This document shows, one piece after another, positions 44,828-64,000 of a stretch of DNA of 64,000 nucleotides. The stretch comes from Halocafeteria seosinensis (Eukaryota): positions 1 through 64,000 of the forward strand of contig LVLI01000109.1 of assembly GCA_001687465.1 (NCBI GenBank), read 5' to 3'. The position numbers and the translations under genes were made by a program. Below the pieces are notes generated by a model. It saw only the letters and a list, made by a program, of their open reading frames with translations, searched no databases and was not told the origin of the DNA. Every line of letters starts with the position of its first letter. Positions within the stretch are counted from its first letter, which is position 1.

Positions 44828-44893
44828 TGTTTATATATGTGGTTTTGTTTAAAAAGAAAAAAACAAAATCATTTTTTTTTTCTCATTTTTGAA

Positions 44894-46006: not shown

Positions 46007-46100
46007 ATATATTTCTGAAATACTTTGTTCCTTTATGCTTTTAAAAAACATGGCAAAACGGTTTTTTGATGTTACTTTTTTTCTAAAAAAGAACAAAGCA

Positions 46101-46373
46101 TTAGATAAGACATTCAACAGGTTCTTTAGGTTGGATAGGTTTAACAGTAGTTTTCTTTTTAGCATCTTTTTTCTTTTCCTTATTATTATTGAATTGGAGT
46201 ATATAGTTGGGTTCTTCTAACCCTAGTTTTTCAAGTCTGGCTTGAATAGCTCCTGTAGTTCGTCCTAATTCTTTGGCTATTTCTTCTTTAGAAATTTTGT
46301 TATTATAACGGGTTTTAAGGGTTTCTTCTTGCTCTGTAGTCCATTTCTTGTATGTACCTGCTTTACCTGACAT
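46101..46373 (-). CDS. Small helix-turn-helix (Myb/GcrA-like) DNA-binding protein
   Basis: 'KWTTEQEETLK....EIAKELGRTTGAIQARLEKLGL'. Confidence 0.7.
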   Translation of the reverse strand: MSGKAGTYKKWTTEQEETLKTRYNNKISKEEIAKELGRTTGAIQARLEKLGLEEPNYILQFNNNKEKKKDAKKKTTVKPIQPKEPVECLI

Positions 46374-46425
46374 TATATATGTGTTTTTCTTTTTGAAACT
46401 AGAAAAAACAAAATCATTTTTCCCC

Positions 46426-47112
46426 TCATTTTTCAGGCTCATCGTCCAGTAGATTAGCGTTGTTTTGATACGATTTACATTTCTTGGACTTATGATGTCT
46501 GGTTAGATTACCCCTACTAACTTCTAGAGAGCAGAATTCACAAGTTATTTTTTGTCTCAAATACTCTTTATTCTTTTCATACCATTGTTTATTCCATTGT
46601 TTAGCCTGTTCAAGATATTTTTCACGATTATCTTTATTCCATTGTTTAGCCTGTTCAAGATATTTTTCACGATTATTTTTCTTCCACTGTTTAACCTGTT
46701 CAATACATTTCTCCCTGTTTTGTGAGTACCATTGTGCATGCCATTGTTTAGATTTATCTTTGTTATTTTGACGATATTCTTTTTTCTCTCTAGAAGGAAC
46801 ACGCTTATTTAACGTAGCTTGTAATTCTTCAAGATAATATCGTTCTCTTTTCGCTAACTGATGGCTAGTTTCACAGGGATACTGTTCAAGCAACACCATA
46901 TCCCAGTTTTCCCAGCCACCATTTTCTCTAATAAACTGATAAACGTAGTAATCATATTTTTTATCATTTGGAATGGTGCTACAGGATTTATGTTGCCTTT
47001 TTCTCTGTTTGAAATTTGTTGTGCTTCCCACATAACAATCATTTATTGAAGGGTCTAAACATGCTATCTTGTATATCAAACCATTATTGTAATTCACTTG
47101 TTTTTTTGGCAT
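46426..47112 (-). CDS. GIY-YIG endonuclease with C-terminal zinc finger
   Basis: 'GLIYKI..CYVGST..FKQRK..H', conserved Glu in 'RERYYL', 15-aa repeats 'REKYLEQAKQWNK', C-terminal 'CEFC..LTRHHKSKKC'. Confidence 0.85.
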   Translation of the reverse strand: MPKKQVNYNNGLIYKIACLDPSINDCYVGSTTNFKQRKRQHKSCSTIPNDKKYDYYVYQFIRENGGWENWDMVLLEQYPCETSHQLAKRERYYLEELQATLNKRVPSREKKEYRQNNKDKSKQWHAQWYSQNREKCIEQVKQWKKNNREKYLEQAKQWNKDNREKYLEQAKQWNKQWYEKNKEYLRQKITCEFCSLEVSRGNLTRHHKSKKCKSYQNNANLLDDEPEK

Positions 47113-47185
47113 TTAAACTTTATAATACTTTTTAAAAGATATAACTCTAAATCATTTTTTTTGTTGGCTATAGATATAATAAAAA

Positions 47186-47371
47186 ATGGTCAGATTAGGA
47201 GGAGCAAAAGGAAAGAAAAGAAAATCGAAGTGGAACACTGTGCTGTCGGATGCTCTTAAAGCACGTTACCAAAACATACCTAAGTTAGCTCAACAGTCCA
47301 AATGGACAAGAGAACGAGTATTTAGGAATGCTGTAGAAGCAACAAAGAAATGGTATAAACCTAAGAAATAA
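47186..47371 (+). CDS. Small basic protein with N-terminal GG motif (putative core protein)
   Basis: 'MVRLGG|AKGKKRKSKWN'; paralog at 61028-61231. Confidence 0.65.
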   Translation: MVRLGGAKGKKRKSKWNTVLSDALKARYQNIPKLAQQSKWTRERVFRNAVEATKKWYKPKK

Positions 47372-47428
47372 AGCTCTTTTTTAGAAAAAATACTTTTAAA
47401 AAAGTTCTGCTATGTTTTTTTAAAAGCA

Positions 47429-47635
47429 ATGAATAATCCTAAACTAAACGGGTTACAGAAGCGAATTTTGAAGCTAAAGAAATTACAACAGTGGTTAGTT
47501 TACCGTATGATATCTGAACGATATGGTGAGGACATACTACACGTGAGTGGAAGTATAACGACTTTCTTACCGGAGCATTTAGACGATGATTTCATAGATG
47601 AACTGGATGCGTATGTTAAGAGTTTCCAGCGTTAG
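47429..47635 (+). CDS. Hypothetical protein
   Basis: 68-aa ORF bracketed by repeat modules. Confidence 0.5.
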   Translation: MNNPKLNGLQKRILKLKKLQQWLVYRMISERYGEDILHVSGSITTFLPEHLDDDFIDELDAYVKSFQR

Positions 47636-47684
47636 CGTCTTCAAAAGAATGTGTTTTTTTGACGCCACTTTTTTTTAAAAAGGG

Positions 47685-47906
47685 CTATTTTTTAGTTTTA
47701 CTTTTGGCCTTTTTCTTTCGTTGTCTTAGTTCCTTTTTAAACTTTGCTTTTTCTTCGGGGCTCGCAAGGATAAGGTCATCAATTTCCTGTTCAGTTTGAA
47801 AATTCCTGTTAGGAGCTTTTTTCTTTGTCCTGATTTTTTTCAGAAAATTAACAGCATCCTTGATTTCTTTTATAGGATTTTTTGCTCCACCTGTTGTTCC
47901 AACCAT
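47685..47906 (-). CDS. Small basic protein with GG motif (putative core protein)
   Basis: 'MVGTTGG|AKNPIKEIKDAVNFLKK..DDLILA'; paralog at 59667-60071. Confidence 0.65.
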   Translation of the reverse strand: MVGTTGGAKNPIKEIKDAVNFLKKIRTKKKAPNRNFQTEQEIDDLILASPEEKAKFKKELRQRKKKAKSKTKK

Positions 47907-47955
47907 TATTCTTATATAGCTCTTTTAGAAAAAAGTTCTTTTTTAGAAGCACAAC

Positions 47956-48687
47956 TTAAGCATATTCACGGACTCTAAGAGCTCTATCTGTTTGGTTGGA
48001 TATGGATTGGGCAATTACATCACTGCTACCATCCTGATAAACGAATAAATCAGGGTTATCATCAGACCTGAGATGAATATTAGTTAAACTATCTCCTAAT
48101 GGCTGTGGAGCATATGACCAGTGAAGCAGATAGTCGGTAGGTGTAGCCCCAACATCAAAAGCTTTACTTTGGGCGTCAGCCTTGGTATTACCAGTTCCGT
48201 CAAATACATTATCAATGGCGTCACGAGCACCAGTACTCATATTGTAAATGTAGAGCGTTCCGGCATCATCTTCCAACATAACATAAAGTTTAGAACCAGT
48301 CCGCTGTATCATTTCAAAATGAGTGGCATCAACAGCACTGGCGACATCACCCGCGACAGCTTTGTATTTGGAATCACCGGAACTCCATTGGTAGTAATAT
48401 TGGTCGGATTCACCAAGGGATATCTCCCCGCTGGGAGCTGTGACATCTACAACCATAGCGGACAATAGCGCTTCAATATCGTTTTGTTTGAGGTTGTTAA
48501 GACTGGTAATATCGTTATCGTTACTGGCAATATCAGATTGATTTTGCGCAATATCGTTTGAGTTGGTAGTCACATCACTTTGAAGAGTGGAGATATTACT
48601 TGAGTTGGTAGCTATACTAGCTCCGTTAGCGAAAACTAGGTCTCTAAGATAGTTTGAAAAGCCTCTGAACACATCACCTGCTGACAT
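47956..48687 (-). CDS. Putative fibre protein (coiled-coil stalk plus head)
   Basis: Asn-rich heptads 'IATNSSNISTLQSDVTTNSNDIAQNQSDIASNDNDITSL' followed by a beta-rich domain. Confidence 0.5.
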   Translation of the reverse strand: MSAGDVFRGFSNYLRDLVFANGASIATNSSNISTLQSDVTTNSNDIAQNQSDIASNDNDITSLNNLKQNDIEALLSAMVVDVTAPSGEISLGESDQYYYQWSSGDSKYKAVAGDVASAVDATHFEMIQRTGSKLYVMLEDDAGTLYIYNMSTGARDAIDNVFDGTGNTKADAQSKAFDVGATPTDYLLHWSYAPQPLGDSLTNIHLRSDDNPDLFVYQDGSSDVIAQSISNQTDRALRVREYA

Positions 48688-48764
48688 CTTTTTCTTATTA
48701 TATACCTATAGCTAAGAAAAAAAATGCTTTTGAATAATGTTTTGCCGTGCTTTTTCTAAAAGCA

Positions 48765-49034
48765 CTAGGGAATAGTTGAACCATCATCAAATTCTATAGT
48801 ATAGGTTTCCTTAAGATAACTGATATAATTTTCTAATTCAGTGACACGGTTCTTAAGGTTGTTAATTTCTTGGGTTAAGCTTTGAACATCGTCATCGAGA
48901 ATATCCTTAAGTTTTATTTTACCGTTAGACAATTCTAAACCGCTTCCGAGGCTCACTTTTTTGGTGATTTTGTCGGAATGTAGATACCGTTCAATAATAG
49001 TATTATCGTTATCAAGAATGAGTGCGACAGCCAT
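48765..49034 (-). CDS. Short fibre-like protein
   Basis: N-terminus 'MAVALILD...IIERYL' shared with the 52394 spike; shaft-like 'LGSGLELSNGKIKL'; coiled coil. Confidence 0.5.
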   Translation of the reverse strand: MAVALILDNDNTIIERYLHSDKITKKVSLGSGLELSNGKIKLKDILDDDVQSLTQEINNLKNRVTELENYISYLKETYTIEFDDGSTIP

Positions 49035-49165
49035 ACTGCTTTATAATAGATGATTTTAAAAAAATGCTTTTAAAAAAGCATGGCAAAACTGTGCTTTCCG
49101 CGTTAGCGTCTTCAAAAGAACTCTTTTCACATTAGCATCTTCAAAAGGCGGGCTGTTTTGCCGTG

Positions 49166-49720
49166 CTACTTTTGTTTTTGGATATCGCGGGTAAGCCAAG
49201 TTACAACTTGGTCATAGGTTTTTAAACCTAATTCCTTTTTGGCTTTATCCAAGGCTCTTTTATACTGTCCGATATCCAGATTTCTATTGCGGTATCTGAC
49301 TAAGGCGTGACGACCACAAGTATTGGAATCATCGGCCTGTAACTTGAACGGATTGTAGTAGATTGGCTTTTTTTCCAGACCTTGGGCTATTTTTTGGAGA
49401 ATTAGCGGGTTTTCTTGTCCTAACTCATCGTTCTTAGCTTCGGAAAGCCAAGCCAATGGTTTATCAGGGTATCCGCCGTAAGAATCAAAATATTCAACGT
49501 AATTGCCGTGGTCAATAAGCAAGACCCAGTGACCAAAATTATGCTTTTGGAGATATAAAACCATCAAAGCATGAGAAGGATTATCTAATAACTTACAGAT
49601 ATTATTCTTATTCAATTCATCATAGGTTTTTATAGGGACATGTAACCGTGTAAATTCTTGGAGCTGAGATTCGCTCAAGGCTATCTTTTCCAATTTCTTA
49701 ATTAGTTTCTTATTCACCAT
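49166..49720 (-). CDS. Adenain/Ulp1-like (clan CE) cysteine protease, virion maturation
   Basis: His 'GHWVLL', Asp 'EYFDSYG', Gln/Cys 'LQADDSNTCGRH'. Confidence 0.85.
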   Translation of the reverse strand: MVNKKLIKKLEKIALSESQLQEFTRLHVPIKTYDELNKNNICKLLDNPSHALMVLYLQKHNFGHWVLLIDHGNYVEYFDSYGGYPDKPLAWLSEAKNDELGQENPLILQKIAQGLEKKPIYYNPFKLQADDSNTCGRHALVRYRNRNLDIGQYKRALDKAKKELGLKTYDQVVTWLTRDIQKQK

Positions 49721-49900
49721 ATAGCTCTTTTTTAGAAAAAAGTATCTTCCGCGTTAGCGTCTTCAAAAGAACTTTAATAATTCTTTTGGAGTTCAATTCA
49801 AGTGTTTTTGATGCCACTTTTTCCTAAAAAGGGCTGTTTTGCCGTGCTTTTTTAAAAGCGAAGTTCAGGTGTTTTTGACGCCACTTTTTTTTAAAAAGGG

Positions 49901-50167
49901 CTAGGCACTAGCGATAGCACTAGCAATACCCTTGATTGATTTCTTAACTCCTGTTTTAAAAGCGTTTTTAGCCGTCTTTTTAGCACCTTCCCGAACTCCT
50001 TCTGGTAGATTATCGAAGATAGCTCTAGCGTTTTTGATTCCGAAGCCTCCTCGTTTAGTGGTTGGCTTATAAGTCTGAGATGCTAATTTAGAAACTTGAC
50101 TGAAAGATTTCTGGGGGTTTTGTTTGGCGACTTTACTGACGTGTTGATTCCAAGCTGTTTTTACCAT
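49901..50167 (-). CDS. Small basic protein with internal GG motif
   Basis: 'WNQHVSKVAKQNP..SKLASQTYK..KRGG|FG'. Confidence 0.6.
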   Translation of the reverse strand: MVKTAWNQHVSKVAKQNPQKSFSQVSKLASQTYKPTTKRGGFGIKNARAIFDNLPEGVREGAKKTAKNAFKTGVKKSIKGIASAIASA

Positions 50168-50218
50168 TCTGTCTATATAGCTCTTTTTTAGAAAAAAAGT
50201 AGCATCAAAAAATCTTTC

Positions 50219-50342
50219 CGCGTTAGCGTCTTCAAAAGAATGTTCTTTTTTAGAAAAAAAGTAACGTCAAAAAACTCTTTCGCGTTAGCGTCTTCAAAAG
50301 AATGTTCTTTTTTAGAAAAAAAGTAACGTCAAAAAACTCTTT
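50219..50342. repeat. Exact tandem duplication of a 62-bp R3+R1 module
   Basis: cgcgttagcgtcttcaaaagaatgttcttttttagaaaaaaagtaacgtcaaaaaactcttt x2. Confidence 0.95.
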
Positions 50343-50361
50343 CTAAAAGCACAAAAAGGGC

Positions 50362-50949
50362 TTAAAAAAAGTTTCGACAGATAGGACAAGACAATTTCTC
50401 CAGATGGGGGTAACAATCTAGACAGACAAAGTGATTACACCGTTTCCATAAATAAACGAGAGCCGGTTTCTCTTTGATACAAATGGGGCAGTCTTCAAAA
50501 TAAGGGTTTTTCAGAGTACTAAACGGGACACACTGGATATTGGGACGAAAATAACGACGAACGGCACTATATTGGGCTTTTTCAAGTGCTATCTGACGAT
50601 ATGACTCGCCGGAATAACAGTTTAAGTCCCAATCTGCACCGTGTTGTTCAAAGAACTTGACCATATATAGAGGAGCGGAAGTAACGACTGCCCATAAAGG
50701 AGAAAAAATCCACGGTTCTTCTTCTTGATGACATTCATTCGGATGAATATAATTAATAATTAGATATCTGACGAATTCATACTTGCGACAATGGAGGGCA
50801 TGAACGACATCAACAGGTTCAACCGGCATATGTTTTAATTCACAAGCGTATCTAAGAACCGCTAAATCGTTACATCTTTCAATGATACAATCAATCCTCC
50901 CCATTATGAAACAGGGAGTATGAGCCAAACATCCAATCACACGATTCAT
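50362..50949 (-). CDS. Ankyrin-like plus RING finger protein
   Basis: 'SPLWAVV..MVKFFEQHGAD' ankyrin-like; C3HC4 'CPIC..CNHFVCLDC..CPICR'; ATG 50949 directly after the R1 motif. Confidence 0.75.
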   Translation of the reverse strand: MNRVIGCLAHTPCFIMGRIDCIIERCNDLAVLRYACELKHMPVEPVDVVHALHCRKYEFVRYLIINYIHPNECHQEEEPWIFSPLWAVVTSAPLYMVKFFEQHGADWDLNCYSGESYRQIALEKAQYSAVRRYFRPNIQCVPFSTLKNPYFEDCPICIKEKPALVYLWKRCNHFVCLDCYPHLEKLSCPICRNFF

Positions 50950-51045
50950 ATAGCTCTTTTTTAGAAAAAAAGTAGCGTCAAAAAACTCTTCCACTCTAAT
51001 AATTCTTTTGGAGTTCAAGTGTTTTGCTGTGCTTTTTTAAAAGCA

Positions 51046-51195
51046 CTAGGGCTTGATACTGATTTTGGAACAGGTCATTTGGGAGTCTTCGTAGAGACAG
51101 CTACTTCGGCATCGTAATTTCTTAAAAAGTTTGTAGAAAAATGGTATTGCTCCCATCCCTCCGGTAATTATTAGGACTATAGTTATTATTTCCAT
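51046..51195 (-). CDS. 49-aa single-pass membrane protein (not in ORF track)
   Basis: MEIITIVLIITGGMGAIPFFYKLFKKLRCRSSC...; paralog at 59487-59639. Confidence 0.65.
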   Translation of the reverse strand: MEIITIVLIITGGMGAIPFFYKLFKKLRCRSSCLYEDSQMTCSKISIKP

Positions 51196-51231
51196 ACCCT
51201 ATACTTAAGGGTAAATAAATAAAATCCCCCT

Positions 51232-52335
51232 TTAGCGGAGTCTATACTTAATCCCTATCTTTTTAACAGGTTTTTTGCCAGTTTTATTCTTTTTGTTTTT
51301 CCTATTAGTAGTTTTGCCGTGCTTTTTTAAAAGCACAGTTTTGCCTTGACCTAGTGGTGGTGTTGGTGGTCGGTTTTGTGCTGGTGGTGGTGGTGTTGGT
51401 GGTGTTGGTGGTCGGTCTCTAGTAGATGCTTCGGGTTCAGCCGATAACATCCCTGTGCTCAGTTTCTCGATAGTAGCATTGCTAATTTTACTCCATGTAC
51501 GGATATCGGAGCTGTTTTGTAGTGTGCCAATCAATGATGCGTGACTCGTAGATGTAAGCTTATCAAAGACGGTTTGTATGTCTTGTGTACGCCCTTGTTG
51601 ATGAAAGGTTTGTCGTAGTATCGTTGTCAGAAGAAACATAATAATCAAAATTCGGAAGGGTTGCTTATTGGCTTGGATAAGTTGCCACGTAACTTGGCTG
51701 GAACTAAGAATAGCATTCAAGAGAGACTGTATTTTTTCTAACTGCTGTTCGTTAAATTTAGTTCCTTGTTTTTCTATGTTATTCATAGCCCGACCTAGTT
51801 CTTCAATCTTGACTTCAGAAATACGGGCTTTGGAACTTGTTACAGCGGAACGGACATCTTGAAGAACTTGTATGATACGTAGGTATTCACCTCGGTTTTC
51901 AGTCAATGGGAGCGTATCTTTATCAAGAATTTGTTTAGCTTGTTGCCCTTCTTGTTTGTTTTCGGCGTTACGCCGTAATAACCGTTGCTTTTCACGGACT
52001 AATTCATTTTCTTCGTTGGCGTTTTTTTTTATTAGAGCCCCTCCTGAATTGCTTTTGTTTTGGAATCGTCCAACCTCATCGGTTTCAAGAGATTGATTTT
52101 TTCCTTGATTGAATGCTCGATAGACCTTTTTGGTTTCAATTCGTTTTTGAATAAAGTTGATTTTGGCTTGTTGTAGCCGATTGGAATTAGTGAAGGTCTT
52201 CTTACTAGGCTTTTCTGTGATGTAAGGAGAATTAAAGAAAAACTTATAGGTTGGGTCACCCATACGACCATAATCAAGAGTAGGACGATGAGGTTGTTCA
52301 AACATTGCGTTGCCTTTAAATCCGCGTGAAGTCAT
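51232..52335 (-). CDS. Hypothetical helical protein with Pro-rich and basic tail
   Basis: 367-aa ORF preceded by the R1-type motif; an R2 repeat is translated in its tail. Confidence 0.6.
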   Translation of the reverse strand: MTSRGFKGNAMFEQPHRPTLDYGRMGDPTYKFFFNSPYITEKPSKKTFTNSNRLQQAKINFIQKRIETKKVYRAFNQGKNQSLETDEVGRFQNKSNSGGALIKKNANEENELVREKQRLLRRNAENKQEGQQAKQILDKDTLPLTENRGEYLRIIQVLQDVRSAVTSSKARISEVKIEELGRAMNNIEKQGTKFNEQQLEKIQSLLNAILSSSQVTWQLIQANKQPFRILIIMFLLTTILRQTFHQQGRTQDIQTVFDKLTSTSHASLIGTLQNSSDIRTWSKISNATIEKLSTGMLSAEPEASTRDRPPTPPTPPPPAQNRPPTPPLGQGKTVLLKKHGKTTNRKNKKNKTGKKPVKKIGIKYRLR

Positions 52336-52393
52336 TTCTCTATAGCTCTTTTTTAGAAAAAAATTTCTGAAAAATAACTATAAGGAATAAAAG

Positions 52394-53845
52394 ATGGCAG
52401 TAGCACAAATCTTGGATGATACGGGAAAAATTTTACAAAGATACATTCCGGATACTGAACACGATAGTTTTAGTGTAATAATTGCTTCGTCGGAAGCCCC
52501 ACAAGATGTTAAAGACAGTGCTGACTATGTTTGTTCTGGAACGGATGACCAAAACACAATTCAGAATGCTATTAATCAGGCTCAAGATGGGGATGTTATA
52601 CGGCTTACTAGTGGGAAATTTTTTATTGATGGAGGTAGTACCAACAATGGAAATGTGGCAATTAACTTATTAAGCGGAATTTCATTTCGTGGCTCATCTA
52701 GCAGTGGAACTATTTTAGAAGTTAACGCTAATTTTGATACTGCTATCAGAACGTTACATGCCGATGATAATAAAGATAATATAGCAATTCGTGATTTATT
52801 TGTTGACAACCAATGGGCAACTCGTGGAAGTCCAGCAGATGACCGTGGTCTTATAATTTCTACCTGTAGTTCGGTTGTTGTAGAAAATATACGCCTCGCG
52901 GATGCCGACGTAGGAGGTGAATTTAACGATAACACGTTATTTCGCGGTAATAATATTTTATGTTCCAACTGTAGTGCCGGTATTATTATAAATGGAACAG
53001 AAGCTAAAATGCCCATATATAACGGGATAAAGTGTGTGGATTGTAACAACGGAATACAGTTAAAAGGAGGATATACAACTTTGCGAGACTGTCAGTTATT
53101 GAACTGTAACGTAAATGGGGGAGATGGTGCTCTGTGGCTATATGGCTCTTCTCGTAACTTGATAGAAAATATTTCTATTCGTTCTGATACTCAAGGTTCT
53201 CCAACAGTAAAAGGAATTTATTTTGGAGATGATGGAGAGGGAAATCATAGTAGCAATAACAAACTGAGACAACTGTACCTTGAGAACTGTACTACAGGTA
53301 TGGACTTCGACCAATTAAATCAAACTAACTTTATTAGCGATGCTTGGTGTGTAAGCAATAACCGAGACGTATCTCAAAATCAAGGAGCACAAAACGAATT
53401 TTCAGGTCTGGATATTAGCAAAAAGATAGACCAACAGTACCTTTCCGCTATCTCCTCAACGGATGCTTCAATACGTATCAAGAATTCCACTATTGATATG
53501 TTTACCAGCACTGTCGACAATATTGGTGACCATTGTATTAGTATTGGGGGTAACGGTGATGGTACAAGAAACATTATCACGAACAATCGACTTCGTTCGT
53601 CCAAAGTATCTGGTGTGTTAGTTGAATTCTCTAACGTGGGAGAACCGAGTAACAATCCTTTCTTAATGATTAGTTCAAATACTATTTTTAATTGTGGAAA
53701 TTTTGGTTTAGAAATAAAAAATACAAAGAAATCCCTTATTACCGGTAATCTGGCGGAGAATAATACCGCATCAATTAACACTTTGAGTAATGATAGTAAC
53801 TCTGATTATACTGTGGTTGCCAATAGCTTTGCCAACCAACCATAA
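52394..53845 (+). CDS. Right-handed beta-helix (pectin-lyase-like) spike protein
   Basis: 'ADYVCSGTDDQNTIQNAINQA..GDVIRLTSGKFFI' tailspike-type start; Asn/Ile-rich PbH1-like repeats. Confidence 0.75.
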   Translation: MAVAQILDDTGKILQRYIPDTEHDSFSVIIASSEAPQDVKDSADYVCSGTDDQNTIQNAINQAQDGDVIRLTSGKFFIDGGSTNNGNVAINLLSGISFRGSSSSGTILEVNANFDTAIRTLHADDNKDNIAIRDLFVDNQWATRGSPADDRGLIISTCSSVVVENIRLADADVGGEFNDNTLFRGNNILCSNCSAGIIINGTEAKMPIYNGIKCVDCNNGIQLKGGYTTLRDCQLLNCNVNGGDGALWLYGSSRNLIENISIRSDTQGSPTVKGIYFGDDGEGNHSSNNKLRQLYLENCTTGMDFDQLNQTNFISDAWCVSNNRDVSQNQGAQNEFSGLDISKKIDQQYLSAISSTDASIRIKNSTIDMFTSTVDNIGDHCISIGGNGDGTRNIITNNRLRSSKVSGVLVEFSNVGEPSNNPFLMISSNTIFNCGNFGLEIKNTKKSLITGNLAENNTASINTLSNDSNSDYTVVANSFANQP

Positions 53846-53939
53846 GTGCTTTTAAAAAAGCACGGCAAAACTTTTTCCGCGTTAGCGTCTTCAAAAGAAA
53901 TATAATAATTCTTTTGAAGTTTAGGTGTTTTTGAAGCCA

Positions 53940-54911
53940 CTAAGAGCACAGAGCATAGTATCGGCAAACTGTTTCAGGTAGTTTAACACCGTTAGGTAGT
54001 TCAACTATTTCTTCATCTGGATGACCATACCCTAACTTAACTAAATCGTTTTTAGTGGGGGGTTTCAACTTACCACCGCCTCGTTTCACGGCGTCAGCCT
54101 TTGTCAAACCTTGGAAATTAATTAGTGAATGGTTCTTAACATTGGACTTAGCTACGCGTGGGAAGACAACTAAACCCCGTCTCAAGAATCGTCCTGATAA
54201 TTCAAAAAGTGGGTCACCTTTGATATACCAGAAACTGAAATTTTTAGGGGTTCGTAAAAGGTCTCGGGGTTGTAAAGCACCGTTATATCCGCGACCCGAC
54301 TTGCCTATTTTGAAATCCCGATGAATTTGAAGTTGAATTGCGTTGCCTAAACTATGTCCGGTTAAGAAAAAGCAAATCTCAGACATTTGGTCTTCGTAGG
54401 ATTTCAGAATTTCTGTTGTAGCTTTCGAATCCGCTTGATATCTTGGACTATCGGTCAATCGGTTAAACATAATATTCTTATCGGCGACAATGTCTTGGAC
54501 ATCTAGTTGAGTGCCACGGTAAGCAATAACAACTGAATTAACTAATTTATCTTGATAAACGGCGACTGTAGGAGTAGAAATATTGGCTTGGTATTGCCAC
54601 CAATCATTAATGAGCATAGGTCGTTTCTTGGGAGCTTCATAAGATGCCGAACAAATTTGAAAATAGCTTTTGTCACTAGGCTCTTTACAGCCTTTAAACA
54701 TTTGACCATTCTTGGCTTTGGCACGTGTCTGGATATCATCCACTACTTCTTTTTTGTCCTGCTCCGCGTTAGCGTCCTCTTGCTCGTTTTGCCCACTTTT
54801 GCTTTCTTTAGCTGTCTTAGCTTTTTTATTATTAACTTTGGTATTTACTTCTTTGGCTAGATTTTCCTGAAGTTTGTCAAGTTTTTTCAACAATTTAGTA
54901 ATACGACTCAT
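53940..54911 (-). CDS. Class-3 lipase-like alpha/beta hydrolase
   Basis: 'VVIAYRGT', nucleophile elbow 'LTGHSLG', 'GDP', C-terminal 'HSL'. Confidence 0.8.
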   Translation of the reverse strand: MSRITKLLKKLDKLQENLAKEVNTKVNNKKAKTAKESKSGQNEQEDANAEQDKKEVVDDIQTRAKAKNGQMFKGCKEPSDKSYFQICSASYEAPKKRPMLINDWWQYQANISTPTVAVYQDKLVNSVVIAYRGTQLDVQDIVADKNIMFNRLTDSPRYQADSKATTEILKSYEDQMSEICFFLTGHSLGNAIQLQIHRDFKIGKSGRGYNGALQPRDLLRTPKNFSFWYIKGDPLFELSGRFLRRGLVVFPRVAKSNVKNHSLINFQGLTKADAVKRGGGKLKPPTKNDLVKLGYGHPDEEIVELPNGVKLPETVCRYYALCS

Positions 54912-54971
54912 TATAATTATTCGTTTTAAAATCTAAGAATTTTTTGACGCTACTTTTTTATAAAAAGAGCA

Positions 54972-55472
54972 ATGACATTAATTTCACCTTGGTTTTGTTT
55001 CTATTGTCGTATAGAACCCGAACAATGGGTAGTTGAGGACTGGTTACGAAAAACATTTAACCAACTTTACCTTCGTTTGAAGTTAGAAGACGAACCGCAT
55101 TTAGCATTCATCTGGGATGCTGGAAAGAAAGAAATATGGCTACAATTCCCGCACATTTGGGTATCTCAAGAGGATTTGGAACGCTTACGTAGGACTATTA
55201 TTTGGATAGTCCAAGACAAGTTTGTGAATAAGGACATCATCGAAGATATTATCACCTTCAGCAAACCACCGGTTATTGAGGGAGGAAACCTACCTCGTCC
55301 AGTATTTATTGAAAAGGTAAGTCAAGTAGGTAAGACACTTTATTATGAAATTACTGATATTACTGACGAACTAGATGATAATACGGAAGCACAATGGGAC
55401 TATTTTAAGAAGGCTTGTTCATCAACTGGTCATCCGAATGACCCACATAGGGAATACAAAATCATCATCTAG
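54972..55472 (+). CDS. Hypothetical protein (weak resemblance to an inactive AEP primase-like domain)
   Basis: 166-aa ORF bracketed by inverted R1; 'KEIWLQFPHIWV' weakly recalls the 'GIHL.FP.I.V' motif. Confidence 0.45.
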   Translation: MTLISPWFCFYCRIEPEQWVVEDWLRKTFNQLYLRLKLEDEPHLAFIWDAGKKEIWLQFPHIWVSQEDLERLRRTIIWIVQDKFVNKDIIEDIITFSKPPVIEGGNLPRPVFIEKVSQVGKTLYYEITDITDELDDNTEAQWDYFKKACSSTGHPNDPHREYKIII

Positions 55473-55574
55473 GTGCTTTTAAAAAAAAAGTGGCGTCAAA
55501 AACCTAAACTGACTAGGACGCTGACGCGAAAAGTGTTTTTGATGCCACTTTTTTTCAAAAAGGGCTTATATAGT

Positions 55575-55829
55575 ATGTATCTTAAAGATTCCAGAGTTAA
55601 ACCAAGTCTATCATTGCTTAATACACCTGAAGACCAGTTTTTTAGTATGATAAAGGATTGGAAAAAAGAACTGATGGAATGGAGGGAAAAAAATAAAGAT
55701 TTCTCAGCAGGTGATACTGTGTCATGTGACCACCAGACCATGTATATAATGGTTAATGTTCTAGGTATAGTTCAATGTACCCCCGATATGTCTATTGATA
55801 ATTTTGAAAAGTATAAGGTATGCTTTTAA
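55575..55829 (+). CDS. Hypothetical protein
   Basis: ATG 55575 follows R1; stop lies inside an R2-type palindrome. Confidence 0.5.
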   Translation: MYLKDSRVKPSLSLLNTPEDQFFSMIKDWKKELMEWREKNKDFSAGDTVSCDHQTMYIMVNVLGIVQCTPDMSIDNFEKYKVCF

Positions 55830-55862
55830 AAGCATTTTTTTCTAAAAAAGAGCTATATAAGA

Positions 55863-56455
55863 ATGAAACTATTAGAACTATTCAGCGGAACAAAAAGTAT
55901 TGGAAAAGTATTTGAACCAAATGGTTGGATGGTGGTTTCCGTGGATAGTGATTCAAAATCTGAGCCGACTATTTGTGAAGATATTCTTAAACTTGATTAC
56001 AAATCCTTATGGCAACCAAAAGAGTTTGATGTAGTATGGGCAAGTCCACCGTGTACCGAATATTCCAGAATTTAGAATTAGCTAACAAAATTGTTCAAAG
56101 AACTTTGGAAATTATTATTTACCTTCAACCCAAATTTTGGTTTATTGAAAACCCCGATTCTGGATTGCTGAAAAATCAAGATTTTATGAAAAATATCCCT
56201 TTCACCAGAGCAGATTATTGTAAATATGGCTATAAATACCGTAAAAGAACGAGATTTTGGGGGACTGTTGAAGGTTTGGAACTGAAAATGTGTAAGTATG
56301 ATTGTCCAGCAACTGATGAAACAGGGAAAAAACATCTTACTTCAATAGGACAACACAGAACAGGAAATGGTCAAGTAGATAGGACTACATTAAATAAAAG
56401 ACATTCAATTCCACCTGCGTTATGTAAAGCATTTTATGATTACGTGTGCTTTTAA
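55863..56455 (+). pseudogene. C5-cytosine DNA methyltransferase, frameshifted near 56070
   Basis: Motif I 'LELFSGT', motif IV 'WASPPCTEYS', then in another frame motif VI 'FIENP' and motif VIII 'KRTRFW'. Confidence 0.8.
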
Positions 56456-56613
56456 AAAAGCACGGCAAAACACTTGAACTTCAAAAGAATTATTAGAGTT
56501 CTTTCTAAGACGCTAACGCGGAAAGAGTTTTGAAGTTTTTTAGATGCTTTATGCTTTTAAAAAAGCATGGCAAAACTTTTTTGATGCTACTTTTTTTTCC
56601 AAAAAAGAGCTAT

Positions 56614-57048
56614 ATGAAACGGTCTAGATTTTTTACCAGAGAGGAAAAAAGAATTATTGATGTATTGACATTTACGGACGATTGGACATTGTTAGGGTCT
56701 CCAGCTGACCCGAACTTTCGATATACATCTGATTTTGATGTAATGGGAAATGTGCCCTTTTCAGGAAAGAGCAAGAATATGGGACAGATGTTAGCTGATA
56801 TGTTGAAAAAGAAAGTAGAAACCATTCATCGTATGAAAAACGTCTATCTAGGCGATGTAAAAGCTGGGACACACAAAGGTGAAAAACTGAGGTGGAATAG
56901 AACAACTATTCGTCAAGGTTATCAGGTGCTCAGCCCTTTTAAAAAGAGTGGCGTCAAAAACTTGGTTTATTTAAGTGATGCCATTAACCAAATCGAAGCA
57001 GAGAATATCTGGCGGAAAAAGTGGATAAAGGGATACATCCTAATATAA
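56614..57048 (+). CDS. Pol-beta-superfamily nucleotidyltransferase-like protein, probably truncated by element B
   Basis: 'LLGSPADPNFRYTSDFDV' (hGS..DxD); the ORF runs into the 57012 hairpin and stops. Confidence 0.55.
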   Translation: MKRSRFFTREEKRIIDVLTFTDDWTLLGSPADPNFRYTSDFDVMGNVPFSGKSKNMGQMLADMLKKKVETIHRMKNVYLGDVKAGTHKGEKLRWNRTTIRQGYQVLSPFKKSGVKNLVYLSDAINQIEAENIWRKKWIKGYILI

Positions 57049-57217
57049 TTGGGGATTATCCCCAAAATTTTATAGCAGGGGGTAAAACCCTAAATCCACA
57101 GGGAACCTGCTACCTGAAGGTAGCAGTCCTATACATCTAGGGTTTAATCCTCTATTATAAAACCAAGGGGCTTAACCTCAATCATACAGGGATATACCCT
57201 ATATCCACTTTTTCCGC
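57012..57217. repeat. ~206-bp imperfect inverted repeat (long hairpin)
   Basis: Ends gcggaaaaagtggata / tatccactttttccgc; arms remain complementary up to the central ctgctacct-ga-aggtagcag; followed by ~12-bp tandem units (aaaattacact/aaattaagttt) to ~57272. Confidence 0.9.
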
Positions 57218-57383: not shown

Positions 57384-57644
57384 TTAATCAGTTCTAAGAT
57401 TGTTGTTGGAAAGGTAATTGGAAAGATATAATAGTCGGAAAAATACGTGTGATGTTGAGCCGAAAAGAGGTTCATCAGGGTTCAACTTCCCTTGTTTCCA
57501 ATTTTCATATAGTTCTTTTATATCATCAGCATCATCAGTTTCATACATTTCTGTGAAATGGGATTGTTCTTCGTCCCATAAGTAATTTATTACATAATTA
57601 ACGCAGTCAATGAAATTTTTGTGGGTTTCCTGTGTTTCCGTCAT
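57384..57644 (-). CDS. Hypothetical acidic protein
   Basis: 86-aa ORF with AAAATTGA about 37 nt upstream. Confidence 0.6.
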   Translation of the reverse strand: MTETQETHKNFIDCVNYVINYLWDEEQSHFTEMYETDDADDIKELYENWKQGKLNPDEPLFGSTSHVFFRLLYLSNYLSNNNLRTD

Positions 57645-57680
57645 ATTGGTAATTTAGTTTAAAGGTTACAATTTTAAAAA

Positions 57681-58076
57681 TCAATTTTTTGTTTCTATAT
57701 GTTTAAGGGTAATAACGAGTGATGGTGTATTTTGTCGGACATAATCCATAGGTAAACTATCCACTTTATTAAGGAAAGGATCCCTTTCACAGTTAGCACC
57801 TAAGGAATTAACGTAATTTTCAGAATTTAAGTAATCAACATGAAGAAGGGAAGGGGGATTATCACAAAAATTCAGGGTGATTTTCTCTATGTTATCATCA
57901 GGAATATTAAAGTCATTTGTTAAGGTTCTATTGGGGAGAATACCTTCATAGTCAATACTATGTAAATAGTTTAAATCTTTGGAACAGGATAATTTTTTTA
58001 CACCACAGGAGGTTAGATATAAAGTTGCGTTAATAAGTTGCCTTTGTTGTTGTTCAGTTATAGTGTTTTCTATCAT
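57681..58076 (-). CDS. Hypothetical protein
   Basis: 131-aa ORF with AAAATTGA about 37 nt upstream. Confidence 0.6.
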   Translation of the reverse strand: MIENTITEQQQRQLINATLYLTSCGVKKLSCSKDLNYLHSIDYEGILPNRTLTNDFNIPDDNIEKITLNFCDNPPSLLHVDYLNSENYVNSLGANCERDPFLNKVDSLPMDYVRQNTPSLVITLKHIETKN

Positions 58077-58188
58077 TTTCTTGGTAAATTTTATAATTTT
58101 AAAGTTTAAAAATCAATTTTTTGTTACCGGTAAAATTAAAGTAAAAAATTGAAATTTTATTTTATAAACCTATAAACAATATACCACA

Positions 58189-58479
58189 ATGGGAAAAGTA
58201 AAAGAACAAGTTATGGAACAAGAACAGAATGAAAATTATCAATGGTTAAAAGAACAATGGGGTTATGCGTATGAAAAAGCAAGGAAAATATTTGAACAAG
58301 GTAAAGATAAAGATCAGTTTTATTTGGATGACCGGTTTTATACAGAAGAAGAGAAAAAGAACTTTTTTGAGGATATAGAACTATTTGATTATCCAGTCTG
58401 GGAATATCTCGCAGATAGAACCATATATGGGTATTTAAGTGTTGACAAATACATTTTTTGCGATAGTGATAGTGAGTAA
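58189..58479 (+). CDS. Hypothetical protein, tandem paralog 1
   Basis: 'WG..Y..AR.I.E.GK.K..F..D..YT.EE...FFE..E.FDYPVWEYLA' shared with the next gene. Confidence 0.7.
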   Translation: MGKVKEQVMEQEQNENYQWLKEQWGYAYEKARKIFEQGKDKDQFYLDDRFYTEEEKKNFFEDIELFDYPVWEYLADRTIYGYLSVDKYIFCDSDSE

Positions 58480-58553
58480 ATAAAATTGGTAATAATATAA
58501 TGAAACAAAAAATTGATTTTTATATTTTTGAAGATAATAAGTAATATAAAACA

Positions 58554-58910
58554 ATGGGACGAATGAAAGACCGCTTGAGAGAACGAGAAGGTTGCCAATT
58601 TATGGTTAACACTTGGGGTGAGACTTATTTTGAAGCTAGAAGAATTTATGAAGAAGGAAAACCAAAAGAAGAATTTGAAATAGACACTAATTATACACAC
58701 GATGAAAGAGAGTTGTTTTTTGAGAATCTTGAAATATTTGATTATCCAGTTTGGGAATATTTAGCAGAAATAAATAAAGAAGGATTTCTAAGTGTAGATA
58801 GTTATATATATAACTATGATATTACGTCATTATATCCAACAGCAATGTTTGAGACTTTAAACGAACACACATTTAGTTATACAGACACTGACTCAGCACA
58901 TATCTTTTAA
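58554..58910 (+). CDS. Hypothetical protein, tandem paralog 2, with a tail made of PolB motif A and C fragments
   Basis: Ends '..YNYDITSLYPTAMFETLNEHTFSYTDTDSAHIF'. Confidence 0.7.
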   Translation: MGRMKDRLREREGCQFMVNTWGETYFEARRIYEEGKPKEEFEIDTNYTHDERELFFENLEIFDYPVWEYLAEINKEGFLSVDSYIYNYDITSLYPTAMFETLNEHTFSYTDTDSAHIF

Positions 58911-59458
58911 TCAATATCTCTAGTTAACCAACTGACTGTCTGGTCAAACGTTTTCAAACCAAACTTATCTTTTTTCTGAGTGAGCCAGTTTATAAAACCT
59001 CTTAGGGTTAAATGTTTCTTACGCCAACGTAAGACCACATATCTCCCACACGTCTCGCTGTCATTTTTGAACAACTGAAGCTGTTGGTCATTCCAATATA
59101 TTGGTTTGGGGTTTTTAGATTTAGCCACACTTTGTAGAATTAGTGGACTTTGACCTAATCGTTGGTTCTTTTTCTTTGTGTTTCCGCTTAAGGGTTCATC
59201 GGGATAATCCCCATAACTATCAAAATAAGATATATATTTACCGTGATCTAATAGAATACACCAATGTCCGAATGATTTTTCAAATAAGTAAAGGATAATA
59301 ACCGCTTTGGATGGGTTATTTAAAATATCATAGATTGTTTTGTGTTTAGGGATTTCATTTAAAGATATAATAGGAATTTTTAACTTAGTAGCAGTTTGTA
59401 ATTTTCGGGATGATAATGCTTGATGTTTTAGTTCATTTATTAATTTGCGATTGACCAT
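58907..59458 (-). CDS. Second adenain-like cysteine protease
   Basis: 'GHWCILL', 'YFDSYG', 'LQLFKNDSETCGRY'; collinear with 49166-49720. Confidence 0.85.
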   Translation of the reverse strand: MVNRKLINELKHQALSSRKLQTATKLKIPIISLNEIPKHKTIYDILNNPSKAVIILYLFEKSFGHWCILLDHGKYISYFDSYGDYPDEPLSGNTKKKNQRLGQSPLILQSVAKSKNPKPIYWNDQQLQLFKNDSETCGRYVVLRWRKKHLTLRGFINWLTQKKDKFGLKTFDQTVSWLTRDID

Positions 59459-59486
59459 TTAAATCTCTTATATTTAGAGATTTAAA

Positions 59487-59639
59487 TTATTTTTCTGTTT
59501 CAACACTAGACTTACATTCAGAATTTTTACCACAACGACTTTGACAAGAGTATCTTTTACGAATGAGCTTATAGATAATGGGTGAAATTCCAGCACTACC
59601 CCCAATTACTGTTGTTAAGATAATGGTCAAAAGTTCCAT
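59487..59639 (-). CDS. 50-aa single-pass membrane protein (not in ORF track)
   Basis: MELLTIILTTVIGGSAGISPIIYKLIRKRYSCQSRC...; paralog of 51046-51195. Confidence 0.65.
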   Translation of the reverse strand: MELLTIILTTVIGGSAGISPIIYKLIRKRYSCQSRCGKNSECKSSVETEK

Positions 59640-60362: not shown

Positions 60363-60434
60363 GATCAACGGAGGGAATTGAACCCTCAACTGCTTTGCCA
60401 CAAAAAGCCGATTTTCCATTAATCTACGTTGATC
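60363..60434 (-). tRNA. tRNA-His(GUG) with encoded G-1 and C73
   Basis: G-ATCAACG/CGTTGAT-C acceptor stem, GATT/AATC D stem, GCTTT-TTGTGGC-AAAGC anticodon arm, GAGGG-TTCAATT-CCCTC T arm. Confidence 0.85.
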
Positions 60435-60459
60435 TATTAACAATAATTAATAGATCACT

Positions 60460-60825
60460 TTAATCTTCTTCCAGATCATCATGTTTTTCTTTTTTTGCTT
60501 TTTCTCTTCTTGCTTTTTCTTTGATATTGGATAGCCTTTTGCTTATTACATGCTTTAACCAGCCTTCGTCTAATTTCGGTTCTAACCAAGCCAAATAATT
60601 TTTATCTATTTCCCTAATTTTTTCACCTTTGTATTTCCCAAAAGGCATAGGTTGAAATCCGTCATCTAACCATTTCTGAGCGTGAACATAAAAAGTATTA
60701 TTTAACCAACTTTCTTCCACGTTGTTTAATAACGTGTATAAATAACTAGGGTGTTCAATTGCTACGTCTTGTAAGAGAAAACCTTTATATTTCCCGAACG
60801 AGAAAGTTATTTTTCTAAAATCCAT
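60460..60825 (-). CDS. Protein with two 'FGKYKG' repeats (DUF3820/ExoX C-terminal-like)
   Basis: 'FSFGKYKG..PSYLYTL' and 'MPFGKYKG..NYLAWL'. Confidence 0.65.
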   Translation of the reverse strand: MDFRKITFSFGKYKGFLLQDVAIEHPSYLYTLLNNVEESWLNNTFYVHAQKWLDDGFQPMPFGKYKGEKIREIDKNYLAWLEPKLDEGWLKHVISKRLSNIKEKARREKAKKEKHDDLEED

Positions 60826-61260: not shown

Positions 61261-61791
61261 TTAAACTGTTTGATAACTTTGACATTTTGTTGACTTCTGG
61301 TGTCGCATTTTATTGGTTCTGGAAACTAAAGAACCACAATGTTCACATTCAACTTTTTCTGATTCACGGTTTTTAATATGTTCTTTATTCTTTTCTTTGT
61401 ATTGTTTATGATAATTTTTAATGTGTTCTTTATATTTTTCCCGATAATTTTCATTATATTCTTCCTTGCTTTGAGTAGGAAGTTGTTTATTACATTTTGG
61501 ATTATAGTGTTCTATTAATTCCCGTTCTCGTCGTTCAAGTTCTAATTTGCTATTACAGGGATAGTATTCAATTAAGACCATCGTGAAATTTTCCCAGCCT
61601 CCATTTTGTCTAATTTCTTGATAAAGGGGGTAAGAATAACCTTTTACGTTCGTGTTATTAAAACATTCTTTATGATTCTTCTTTCGTTGCTTAAAGTTAG
61701 TAGTGGAACCAATGTAAACAACTTCGGATGAATCTATCGGTACAATCTTGTAAATCAAACCATTGGAATAGTCTATGTTTTGTTTTGGCAT
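61261..61791 (-). CDS. Second GIY-YIG endonuclease
   Basis: 'GLIYKI..VYIGSTTNFKQRK', 'NGGWENFTMVLIE.YPC', 'CEHCG..RHQKSTKC'. Confidence 0.85.
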   Translation of the reverse strand: MPKQNIDYSNGLIYKIVPIDSSEVVYIGSTTNFKQRKKNHKECFNNTNVKGYSYPLYQEIRQNGGWENFTMVLIEYYPCNSKLELERRERELIEHYNPKCNKQLPTQSKEEYNENYREKYKEHIKNYHKQYKEKNKEHIKNRESEKVECEHCGSLVSRTNKMRHQKSTKCQSYQTV

Positions 61792-61828: not shown

Positions 61829-64000
61829 CTAAATCATTTTGTAAATTAAATTTATATTACCGTTAGGGTACCACCGATTATCAATCAAACCACCATCTGT
61901 GGTAGACCAATTAGGAGACCACGTCTTTTCAAACTTAGTTTGAATGATATCAAAATGCTCCACTCCTTTAGTCTTTTGTTCTTTTGAAGGTTTTAAATTA
62001 ACCTTTTTTAAATGTGGGTTTGAATCTGTAATCACTGTTTCCTGTTCGTGTTCATAGATATCTCCAAATTGTTTAAGCAAATCTTTGGGTATACCCTTAC
62101 ATTTTAAATCATCGCAAATATTCCCGAACTTGTCTATATAAATATAGAAATAATTCTTAGGACTGTAATTTCCTTCACACAGAATCTTACCACCGTCATC
62201 AATGTCATTACTCAAACATCCAAGACCTGTATCAAACCAGTATTTACCATTGGTGGGATTAATCTTGTTTTCTAGTCTTGGTAAAAGTGATGAATGGATA
62301 TGTGCCGAGTCTGTATCTGTATAACTAAATGTGTGTTCGGTTAGAGTTGGATCTAAAGCCTCAAACAGATTTAACATAATTCTCCTACTGTAAGAGAGAA
62401 GAAACATTCCTACGTGAATAGGTTTATTATTAATAGTATCATCATCGTCTTCTTTGGTTCCTGTTACAGCTATCCCGTGGTTCATAACAATTATATCATT
62501 AATGTATTTATGGTCTCTCCAAAATCCAATAAAGGAATTGTAGTCATTACAAATTTCTGTTTCAGAATATCTTGGCTTTTGTAAAGTTTTACCAAATAAA
62601 CTATTTAAAAAGAGCTTCGCACAAGCTCGGATACTTTTATTATAGTTAGAATCTCCATTTTCTTTATATACATCTTGTTCGGCTTTAACACGGAAAAACA
62701 TATCTACATAATCCTTAAAAATATAATCCCCTGTTTTCCATTCATAACCTTCGTGAATTCTAGTTATTTCGTATCCATGTTTTATAGCATGTTCTAAATC
62801 AATATGTGTGTACCATTCTTGAGATATATTTTTGATATTCCATTGTACACCTATTCTTTGGTTCAAATGATTATATTTAGGACTAGGAACCGGTGAAATA
62901 ACTAAATCACGATTATGATTAACCATATCCACTTTTAAAAGATAGAATTTATCTAAAGTCTGTCTAGCATTTAACTTTTTCTTTACATCTTCAAATTCTT
63001 CCATTTTTTCAGGTTCTCCCATAGGATACTGATAATAGTACATAGCTGTCGGATATAATGACGTAATATCACCATTAAAAATATAATCTTCTGTATTCTT
63101 ATATAATTGACGAGCTTGATGCTGAAAATAAATACCTTCCATTCCTTTATTCCTGTTTAGTTTCTGTTCATCATAAATTAATTTAGCACCCCTAAAAGAT
63201 AAACTCATATAATGCTTTTTCATAGGATAGGTTCTGCCTCCATAAGTAGCTTTCCGACAATCTTCTAACAATTTCTTTTCTTTAGGAATATGAACCAATT
63301 TTTCAGTCTCTCTTCCTTCAATAGTAGGTTTTTTATTTTGTGATTTATCAAATACCCTTCGGTTAATATCATCAGCAAACTGTGGTAAAGTACAAAAATC
63401 TAAAGGTTCATACTTTTCAAGATAATCCAATTCTTCTTTCCCGAAAATATCCGAAATAGCTTGTCTATATTTCATTACTAATTCAGCTAATCCCATAACA
63501 TCTTTCTCTAGATAAGGTCCCCATTCAGGTTCATATTTTTCTACATCATCCCATGTTTTGATTTTAGAATGCTCAAAATCCCCTTTACTAACCTCACAGT
63601 TAAAATCTTTCAAGGCTTTCTTTAAACTCCCTCCTACATGATTGTTAATATCCCAGAAAACTAAATTATTTTCTTCAATCTTCATACTTAAAATTCTCCC
63701 ATTATTCAGAATAATATCTTTCATTTTTACACCCTTTTCTTGTAGTTTAGATAAAATAAAATGAAAATCAAAACCTGAACCATTAAAAGCCACCGCATAT
63801 TGAGGTTTGGTGTAAGTTTTTTCTTTCATCACTCCTTTTTCCTTCCCTTTATAGGTTCGTGTTATTTTAGGAATATTAATTAAATAATCCACAAAAGCAT
63901 CCAAACAATTCTCTCCTTTAAATCTTTGTCTAGTCTCTGGATTCCTACCTTGTACAATATCACCCGCATAGACACGATGAATTAACTGATTTTCTGGGAA
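61829..64000 (-). CDS. Protein-primed family B DNA polymerase (pPolB), 5'-partial
   Basis: ExoII 'FNGSGFDFHFI', ExoIII 'YLEKDV', 'YGGRT', motif A 'DITSLYP', motif B 'KLFLNSLFGK', motif C 'YTDTDS', 'PKNY', 'KCKGI'; the frame stays open to the window edge. Confidence 0.92.
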   Translation of the reverse strand, partial: FPENQLIHRVYAGDIVQGRNPETRQRFKGENCLDAFVDYLINIPKITRTYKGKEKGVMKEKTYTKPQYAVAFNGSGFDFHFILSKLQEKGVKMKDIILNNGRILSMKIEENNLVFWDINNHVGGSLKKALKDFNCEVSKGDFEHSKIKTWDDVEKYEPEWGPYLEKDVMGLAELVMKYRQAISDIFGKEELDYLEKYEPLDFCTLPQFADDINRRVFDKSQNKKPTIEGRETEKLVHIPKEKKLLEDCRKATYGGRTYPMKKHYMSLSFRGAKLIYDEQKLNRNKGMEGIYFQHQARQLYKNTEDYIFNGDITSLYPTAMYYYQYPMGEPEKMEEFEDVKKKLNARQTLDKFYLLKVDMVNHNRDLVISPVPSPKYNHLNQRIGVQWNIKNISQEWYTHIDLEHAIKHGYEITRIHEGYEWKTGDYIFKDYVDMFFRVKAEQDVYKENGDSNYNKSIRACAKLFLNSLFGKTLQKPRYSETEICNDYNSFIGFWRDHKYINDIIVMNHGIAVTGTKEDDDDTINNKPIHVGMFLLSYSRRIMLNLFEALDPTLTEHTFSYTDTDSAHIHSSLLPRLENKINPTNGKYWFDTGLGCLSNDIDDGGKILCEGNYSPKNYFYIYIDKFGNICDDLKCKGIPKDLLKQFGDIYEHEQETVITDSNPHLKKVNLKPSKEQKTKGVEHFDIIQTKFEKTWSPNWSTTDGGLIDNRWYPNGNINLIYKMI

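Follow-up and report, generated by a model that had tools for sequence, protein, structure and literature searches.

The catalytic motifs of a protein-primed DNA polymerase spliced in frame onto a small gene of a putative Polinton-like virus: a possible decoy

Introduction

In Bodo saltans virus, according to the available text of its description (Deeg, Chow and Suttle, 2018, PMC5871332), ankyrin-repeat ORFs carry catalytic-domain fragments of DNA polymerases or MutS at their 5' ends, which have been proposed to act as decoys for host antiviral factors. We found no test of this idea in the open-licence literature. MIMIVIRE of Mimivirus reportedly involves repeats of foreign virophage sequence within the giant virus, and to our knowledge almost nothing is known about the detection of Polinton-like viruses and virophages by protists or giant viruses. 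GIY-YIG genes are often found next to PolB in virophages and Polinton-like viruses (PMC11296320, PMC12220804, 10.64898/2026.10.13.758929, available text), and bacterial Avs/STAND receptors sense core phage proteins, with Avs19 sensing family A polymerases (PMC13581612, available text). A description of multi-motif polymerase collages was not found in the open-licence literature, and motif collages are not mentioned in the available parts of PMC12721341, PMC11476376, PMC11043551, and PMC11464507.

Here we describe a small gene found in a stretch of 64,000 nucleotides from Halocafeteria seosinensis (positions 1 to 64,000 of contig LVLI01000109.1, the whole of which is called here the window). 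As in the available account of Bodo saltans virus (PMC5871332), an accessory ORF is joined in frame to an unrelated piece, here a catalytic-domain fragment of the element's own essential polymerase. What is new here is that several polymerase motifs are put together as a collage in a small element of a eukaryote, recently enough for the donor to be still visible, and that there are independent parallels in protein-primed phages.

Genomic context

The GC content of the 64-kb window is about 47% up to position 44000 approximately, corresponding to gene-dense eukaryotic host DNA, probably that of a protist, and 30–38% beyond, and this low-GC part looks like two nested elements. The outer one (about 44000-57047) has a GIY-YIG gene along with an intergenic repeat family and hairpins of its own. 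It also includes a split DNA methylase (55863-56455), and the ORF at 56551-57048 runs up to the boundary of the inner element. The inner element starts near 57048, where an imperfect inverted repeat (57012..57217), located in a region of high contig depth, is probably its left end, and it runs off the end of the window, with 7 kb inside. It combines a protein-primed family B polymerase (pPolB), a GIY-YIG nuclease, low GC, the inverted-repeat end, several small genes, and a probable protease. From these traits, among which capsid, packaging ATPase, and integrase do not figure, we call it an integrated Polinton-like virus, whose capsid and integrase genes would lie outside the window. In the host part, an ORF of 1954 aa (24753-30617, plus strand) contains a P-loop and WD40-like repeats, and presumably resembles an Apaf-1/NB-ARC receptor, as judged by eye.

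The polymerase gene (61829..64000, minus strand), inside which the window ends, matches PF03175 (E 2.5e-45), and its structural model (pLDDT 89.5) has the phi29 polymerase as top structural match (E 1.7e-19). Both the family match and the phi29-like fold are therefore present in the putative donor gene of the motifs described below. Directly downstream of it there is a free-standing GIY-YIG nuclease (61261..61791, minus strand; Pfam GIY-YIG, E 4e-10). Two contig joints (61255-61851 and 61258-61877) skip this gene, with sides of only 27 and 34 nt that make them weak, and it is apparently missing from some copies, as expected of a homing nuclease. A small protein with two ExoX-like C-terminal domains (PF20600) is encoded at 60460-60825 (minus strand). 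Further to the left, a gene of 183 aa (58907..59458, minus strand) converges on the gene under study, the two stop codons overlapping, and has relatives in four of the 89 loci compared. Its protein gave no match in Pfam, PHROG, or PDB, and from the pattern of catalytic residues we take it to be the probable cysteine protease of the element.

The gene under study (58554..58910, plus strand) is an intact ORF of 118 aa, made of a carrier of approximately 86 aa and a tail of 30–35 aa with polymerase motifs. The carrier belongs to no Pfam or PHROG family, no homologs of it were found in several searches, one of which gave one candidate and none scored, and the single-sequence fold of the whole protein (pLDDT 40) is uninformative. 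Just upstream there is a tandem paralog (58189..58479, plus strand) that shares 47% identity with the 58554 protein over 90 aa and stops before the tail, which agrees with the tail-less paralog of the initial annotation. The end of this paralog (58459-58476) encodes a short acidic stretch, Tyr-Ile-Phe-Cys-Asp-Ser-Asp-Ser, loosely similar to motif C, that may be due to chance or may be an older mimic.

The motif AAAATTGA is found upstream of the tailed gene (58509..58516, plus strand), where it would act as promoter, and the paralog has its own at 58145. There are four copies in the 7-kb element, each before one of the four small genes at 57384-58910. In the available text of PMC6163669, AAAATTGA is the early-promoter consensus of Mimiviridae, whose genes likewise end in hairpins. 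Strong gene-end hairpins were seen here at 59457-59487 and 60430-60457 (folding z -5.1 and -6.2). Taken together, hairpins and AAAATTGA motifs suggest that the element could use the transcription system of a giant virus.

Structure and origin of the tail

When positions 58500-59000 were compared with the window by BLASTN, two fragments of the tail matched the polymerase gene, both on the opposite strand. The first one (58802..58848, plus strand) is a copy of polymerase positions 63086-63040 that includes motif A, with 40/47 identical nucleotides (E 2e-9). Its core (58818-58847) encodes ten residues, all of them identical to the polymerase, with two synonymous changes. The second (58854..58904, plus strand) is a copy of 62347-62297 that includes motif C, and the alignment extends from 58854-58913 to 62347-62288 with 52/60 identities (E 2e-15). 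Here 16 of the 17 residues are identical, with four synonymous changes and one non-synonymous. The polymerase stretch had no match below E 0.1 in the rest of the window beyond these two tail fragments, and the real tail scored 70.7 and 54.5 bits against the polymerase, compared with 31.9 for the best of 1000 codon-shuffled tails. The motif A Asp and the motif C Tyr, separated by 249 codons (747 nt) in the polymerase, are 20 codons apart in the tail, where 229 codons are gone. The initial annotation had read the tail as motifs A and C of pPolB, copied from the opposite strand and lying some 700 bp apart in the polymerase, and these alignments and the spacing bear it out.

Among the 27 core codons, 26 encode the same residue as the element's own polymerase and seven differ, five of them by synonymous third positions, one by a synonymous first position (Leu), and one by a non-synonymous change (Thr to Asn). 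Two further non-synonymous differences are found in the five codons preceding the motif A Asp, within a palindrome at 58798-58817. The earlier description of the nearby differences as synonymous third positions holds for most of the core (5/7), and has to be amended for the first-position change and the non-synonymous ones. Six synonymous codons out of seven have a probability of 0.001–0.003 under neutral drift from an identical donor, but a donor that was itself a diverged sister polymerase would be expected to give this bias just as well. As for the choice of the fragments, we estimated post hoc that two random fragments of such sizes would cover both motifs with a probability of 8e-5 to 5e-4, and would also be in frame with one of about 1e-5 to 6e-5.

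The joints give indications of how the tail could have been formed. At the first one, between carrier and motif A, the codons for Tyr-Ile-Phe are common to the paralog and the polymerase, and there is a perfect 20-bp palindrome (58798..58817; folding z -1.1, not significant) that is possibly a fold-back scar or a weak terminator. The codon alignments place at the A-to-C joint (58845..58859, plus strand) a 3-nt microhomology (58846-58848) and a short third piece of the polymerase, in which 58845-58859 corresponds, with 13/15 nt, to the codons located 12–14 codons before motif C. At the third joint, the end of the convergent gene is an imperfect inverted repeat of motif C. These microhomologies and the palindrome fit template switching. 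Capture of the fragments from a related polymerase, as originally proposed, is supported by the BLASTN matches and the codon alignments, which point to the element's own polymerase or a closely related one as the probable source. The capture would have been recent and guided by microhomology, with the template switching to the own or to a sister polymerase. Since the donor DNA is still 85–87% identical, the copy in the window shows how such genes arise.

Template switching leaves unexplained why only the two catalytic motifs were copied, and in frame. This is also the main difficulty for a one-off neutral insertion, in which the repair of a break at the gene end would have copied patches of a sister polymerase by microhomology and left a functionless copy. 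Such an event would account for the microhomologies at the three joints (the Tyr-Ile-Phe codons, the 3 nt, and the inverted repeat between protease end and motif C), for the perfect palindrome at the first joint, for the presence of the tail in one copy class only, and for the many variant copies that recombine in this genome according to the contig joints. It does not explain the recurrence of collages elsewhere (see below), and we regard it as unlikely.

We have also considered a role at the RNA level, in which the insert would be a terminator hairpin for the convergent gene or would provide, as 3' UTR, an antisense RNA against polymerase transcripts. The minus-strand end of the presumed protease gene pairs with the motif C antisense (-11.4 kcal/mol, z -2.2), and other genes of the element end in the strong hairpins already described (z -5.1 and -6.2), as in Mimiviridae (available text of PMC6163669). 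On the other hand, the whole region folds no better than shuffled sequences (z -0.9 and 0.0), neither motif A nor an open frame would be needed, and the phage cases described below would not be covered, all of which makes this role very unlikely.

Copy number and assembly

The tail is covered by contigs of one public run (X1), which is possibly the source of the window itself and hence does not count as independent support. One contig (58543-58883, 341 nt, depth 26) runs from the gene through motif A into motif C. A second contig (58856-58990 and further on, 180 nt, depth 72) goes from motif C into the convergent gene. Each has a single letter different, and together they bridge the three junctions of the tail. 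The tail is not covered in runs X2 and X3. Positions 58770-58849 are covered by the depth-26 contig alone, compared with depths of 233–253 for the contigs with the polymerase motif C and of 24 and 99 for those of the tail-less paralog, contig depth being a rough guide and rare variants being dropped from contigs. The full tail seems to be confined to one copy class among many related elements in this genome. A depth-44 contig, read by hand, matches the end of the convergent gene and then diverges into another plus-strand frame with the same stop codon and without polymerase motifs. A contig of 32 nt and depth 135 coincides with the beginning of the motif C fragment, so that a closer sister allele of the polymerase may exist. 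The DTDS codons of the tail were absent from every polymerase contig aligned from run X1. Another contig (depth 14) appears to join 63103 to 60838, which would place a promoter and start codon resembling those of the 60460-60825 gene immediately ahead of motif A, in the polymerase frame. Either another capture or a spurious match of AT-rich sequence could account for it.

The inverted orientation and the distance of 3–4 kb, in data from one run only and with an X1 library type that is not on record, could be produced by an assembly or amplification chimera. This is the least probable of the explanations considered here, because the joints are spanned by two contigs (depths 26 and 72), the tail and the local polymerase are not the same at 7/81 core nucleotides, the DTDS codons of the tail are found in no aligned polymerase contig, and three joints would be needed within 110 nt, plus a return to the original template.

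A tail unique to this copy and due to a simple deletion by microhomology had been named in the initial annotation as an outcome that would refute its interpretation. We do find a single copy class and microhomologies at the joints, but the insert is inverted, in frame, made of the motifs only, and separated by 3–4 kb from a polymerase gene that is intact, which is not what a simple deletion produces.

Related sequences in phages and metagenomes

A motif-pattern scan of metagenome contigs gave nine matches, eight of them due to chance. The remaining one, L089, is a partial contig (7.4 kb) of a phi29-like phage, with a phi29-type polymerase (phrog_1907, E 2e-136) and a packaging ATPase. It contains an ORF of 79 aa (L089:4585-4824, minus strand), unrelated to the window carrier, that ends in motif A, three residues, and motif C. 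Seven homologs of this ORF were found, of which P0065 keeps the splice and the other six (P0066-P0071) lack the tail, the same pattern of tailed and tail-less versions as in the window. P0064, the tailed allele from the pattern scan, gave a weak unnamed match in an atlas search. Between the tails of P0065 and L089, 1/11 positions that are invariant in polymerases has changed versus 5/7 of the variable ones (Fisher p 0.013), a comparison that is partly circular since P0064 was picked by the motif pattern and its invariant positions were in part selected by the search. Compared with the polymerase of the same phage, the L089 tail is identical at 12/18 amino acids and at 28/54 nucleotides (52%), with both serines in the other codon block, which points to selection at the protein level. 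In another phi29-like phage, an ORF of 94 aa (L028:944-1228, minus strand) begins with motif B and finishes with motif C, at near-native spacing, and lies opposite an intact phi29-type polymerase; it may be a mimic or a decayed fragment.

The phage data bear as well on a DNA role linked to homing, in which the GIY-YIG nuclease would cleave motifs A and C of polymerase alleles, the tail being then either a binding decoy or a by-product of repair at these two cut sites. Polymerase motifs A and C are targets of inteins and homing, the GIY-YIG gene is directly behind the polymerase and apparently missing in some copies, and the DTDS codons concentrate three of the synonymous changes, the preceding 32 nt being common to a high-depth contig. 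The available text of PMC11296320 likewise has such nucleases adjoining PolB in virophages and Polinton-like viruses and proposes them as conflict drivers. However, if the decoy could be cleaved the element would cut its own genome, an in-frame fusion would be unnecessary, and the L089 tail retains only 52% DNA identity to its own polymerase, as opposed to 85–87% in the window. In addition, no nuclease ORF was recognized by eye on the partial L089 contig. We consider this role quite unlikely.

A search with a 19-position profile over 1.84 billion representatives gave, at E values up to 0.001, five matches: three polymerases, one repeat-like ORF (P0074), and one collage (P0075). The search is insensitive, as P0065 had an E value of 0.86 locally and P0064 was not returned. 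P0075 is a protein of 97 aa that ends in motifs B, C, and A, i.e., in permuted order, separated by linkers of two or three residues, and the permutation means that it is not obtainable by deletion. In its cluster of ten members (the others being P0078-P0086), SLYGK, CYADTDSV, and D-x-x-SLYPSVM are invariant in 10/10, and the two free positions of motif A vary. The Asn of motif B, invariant in polymerases, is Ser or Thr in eight of the ten. Contigs of up to 15–17 kb and a weak match to the phi29-type polymerase family suggest that the P0075 proteins come from phi29-like phages.

In none of the 75 testable loci among 80 related viral ones was a polymerase motif copied as DNA to a place outside the polymerase gene, which indicates that the tail is not a feature of the clade. 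Self-matches of L055 were discarded as motif copies for being low-complexity. Three pattern scans of viral contigs for the short A-to-C splice gave 0, 0, and 0 real of 5, a loose scan of viral contigs had D-x-x-S before LYP in none of the at least 120 matches listed, and the scan of prokaryote genomes had no convincing case among eight. The splice patterns fix the first codon and many variants are therefore missed. Two in-frame A-to-C look-alikes in prokaryote genome contigs (L210:148-221 and L216:3619-3671) are probably due to chance. Collages were not found by tblastn among cultured phages, and a single-sequence search of viral contigs for near relatives of the polymerase found none. The best protein matches of the polymerase were 44–45% identical.

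Discussion

We favor the reading of the 58554 gene product as a non-catalytic peptide mimic of the polymerase active site that would act as a decoy, a reading for which, from sequence, we put the chances at about even. Its last 30–35 residues are an in-frame splice of both catalytic motifs of the element's own polymerase. The small protein is likely made early in infection, to judge from the promoter-like motif upstream, and it would soak up a host or helper-virus factor that recognizes the polymerase active site, with selection presumably acting on the peptide. Among the four ideas put forward in the initial annotation, the peptide mimic fits best, because there are independent collages, the catalytic residues are conserved, and the motif order is permuted in one family. 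The recurrence of the design, together with the likeness of the L089 tail to its own polymerase, good as peptide and poor as DNA, makes a selected mimic more probable than a DNA decoy aimed at the neighboring GIY-YIG nuclease or a simple relic of a deletion. The memory of a competing element is a weak idea, given that 26/27 core residues are those of the element's own polymerase.

The same identity weighs against a dominant-negative poison, a peptide that would block the polymerase of a competing element by inserting itself into the palm. Motifs A and C build the catalytic center of the polymerase palm and many related elements coexist in this genome, but such a peptide should poison the own polymerase too, and we find this explanation highly improbable.

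Different parts of the favored mimic reading deserve different confidence. That motif collages are selected as a class is very probable, and that the copy in the window is a selected member of this class is fairly probable, the decoy role itself being held less firmly. Against the decoy reading, the tail is present here in one copy class, with no second class in which to see it conserved. Furthermore, Avs-type receptors, in the available text of PMC13581612, read folded cores and not short linear motifs, and none is shown there for family B. Moreover, the parallels are in phages or probable phages, and a cause common to them and to the eukaryotic element is inferred. More tentatively, and with more doubt than conviction, protein-primed DNA viruses of eukaryotes and bacteria might repeatedly build decoys by stitching the catalytic motifs of their polymerase to early proteins that are dispensable, the targets being undiscovered immune factors that read invariant motifs. 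The window would then display a newly formed decoy of this kind, whose donor is still recognizable, and the protist or its giant virus would sense the polymerase of Polinton-like viruses. If the tails are decoys, they are also ready-made baits, as a 30-residue peptide names the epitope and allows the sensor to be isolated by pull-down or co-expression. P0064 and P0065 with their tail-less alleles, together with P0075, provide natural controls for the decoy idea.

Compared with known systems, the tail resembles a protein-primed family B polymerase in motifs A and C (26/27 core residues) and differs in having no exonuclease, fingers (motif B), TPR, or thumb. As the full polymerase is intact at 61829-64000, the tail is not an enzyme, nor is it one of the two halves of a split enzyme. 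Like MIMIVIRE, the gene has a short virus-derived sequence embedded in another viral gene; unlike it, the pieces are single and match the element's own polymerase. The free-standing nuclease that adjoins the polymerase, apparently optional among copies (on the weak evidence of contig sides of 27 and 34 nt), is shared with the GIY-YIG homing nucleases of virophages and Polinton-like viruses, for which, in contrast, the available text of PMC11296320 and PMC12220804 does not describe copies of the target site elsewhere in the element. A receptor like Avs19 is the kind of factor that a polymerase decoy could absorb, although Avs19 is bacterial, directed to family A, and fold-based, and the available text of PMC13581612 shows no sensor for protein-primed family B or for this host. 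Finally, in comparison with the available description of Bodo saltans virus (PMC5871332), the carrier in the window is small, non-ankyrin (no Pfam match), and occurs there as two paralogs instead of 148 copies, the polymerase fragments are at the 3' end and not at the 5' end, and two non-adjacent motifs are brought together within 30 residues in a small Polinton-like virus and not in a giant one.
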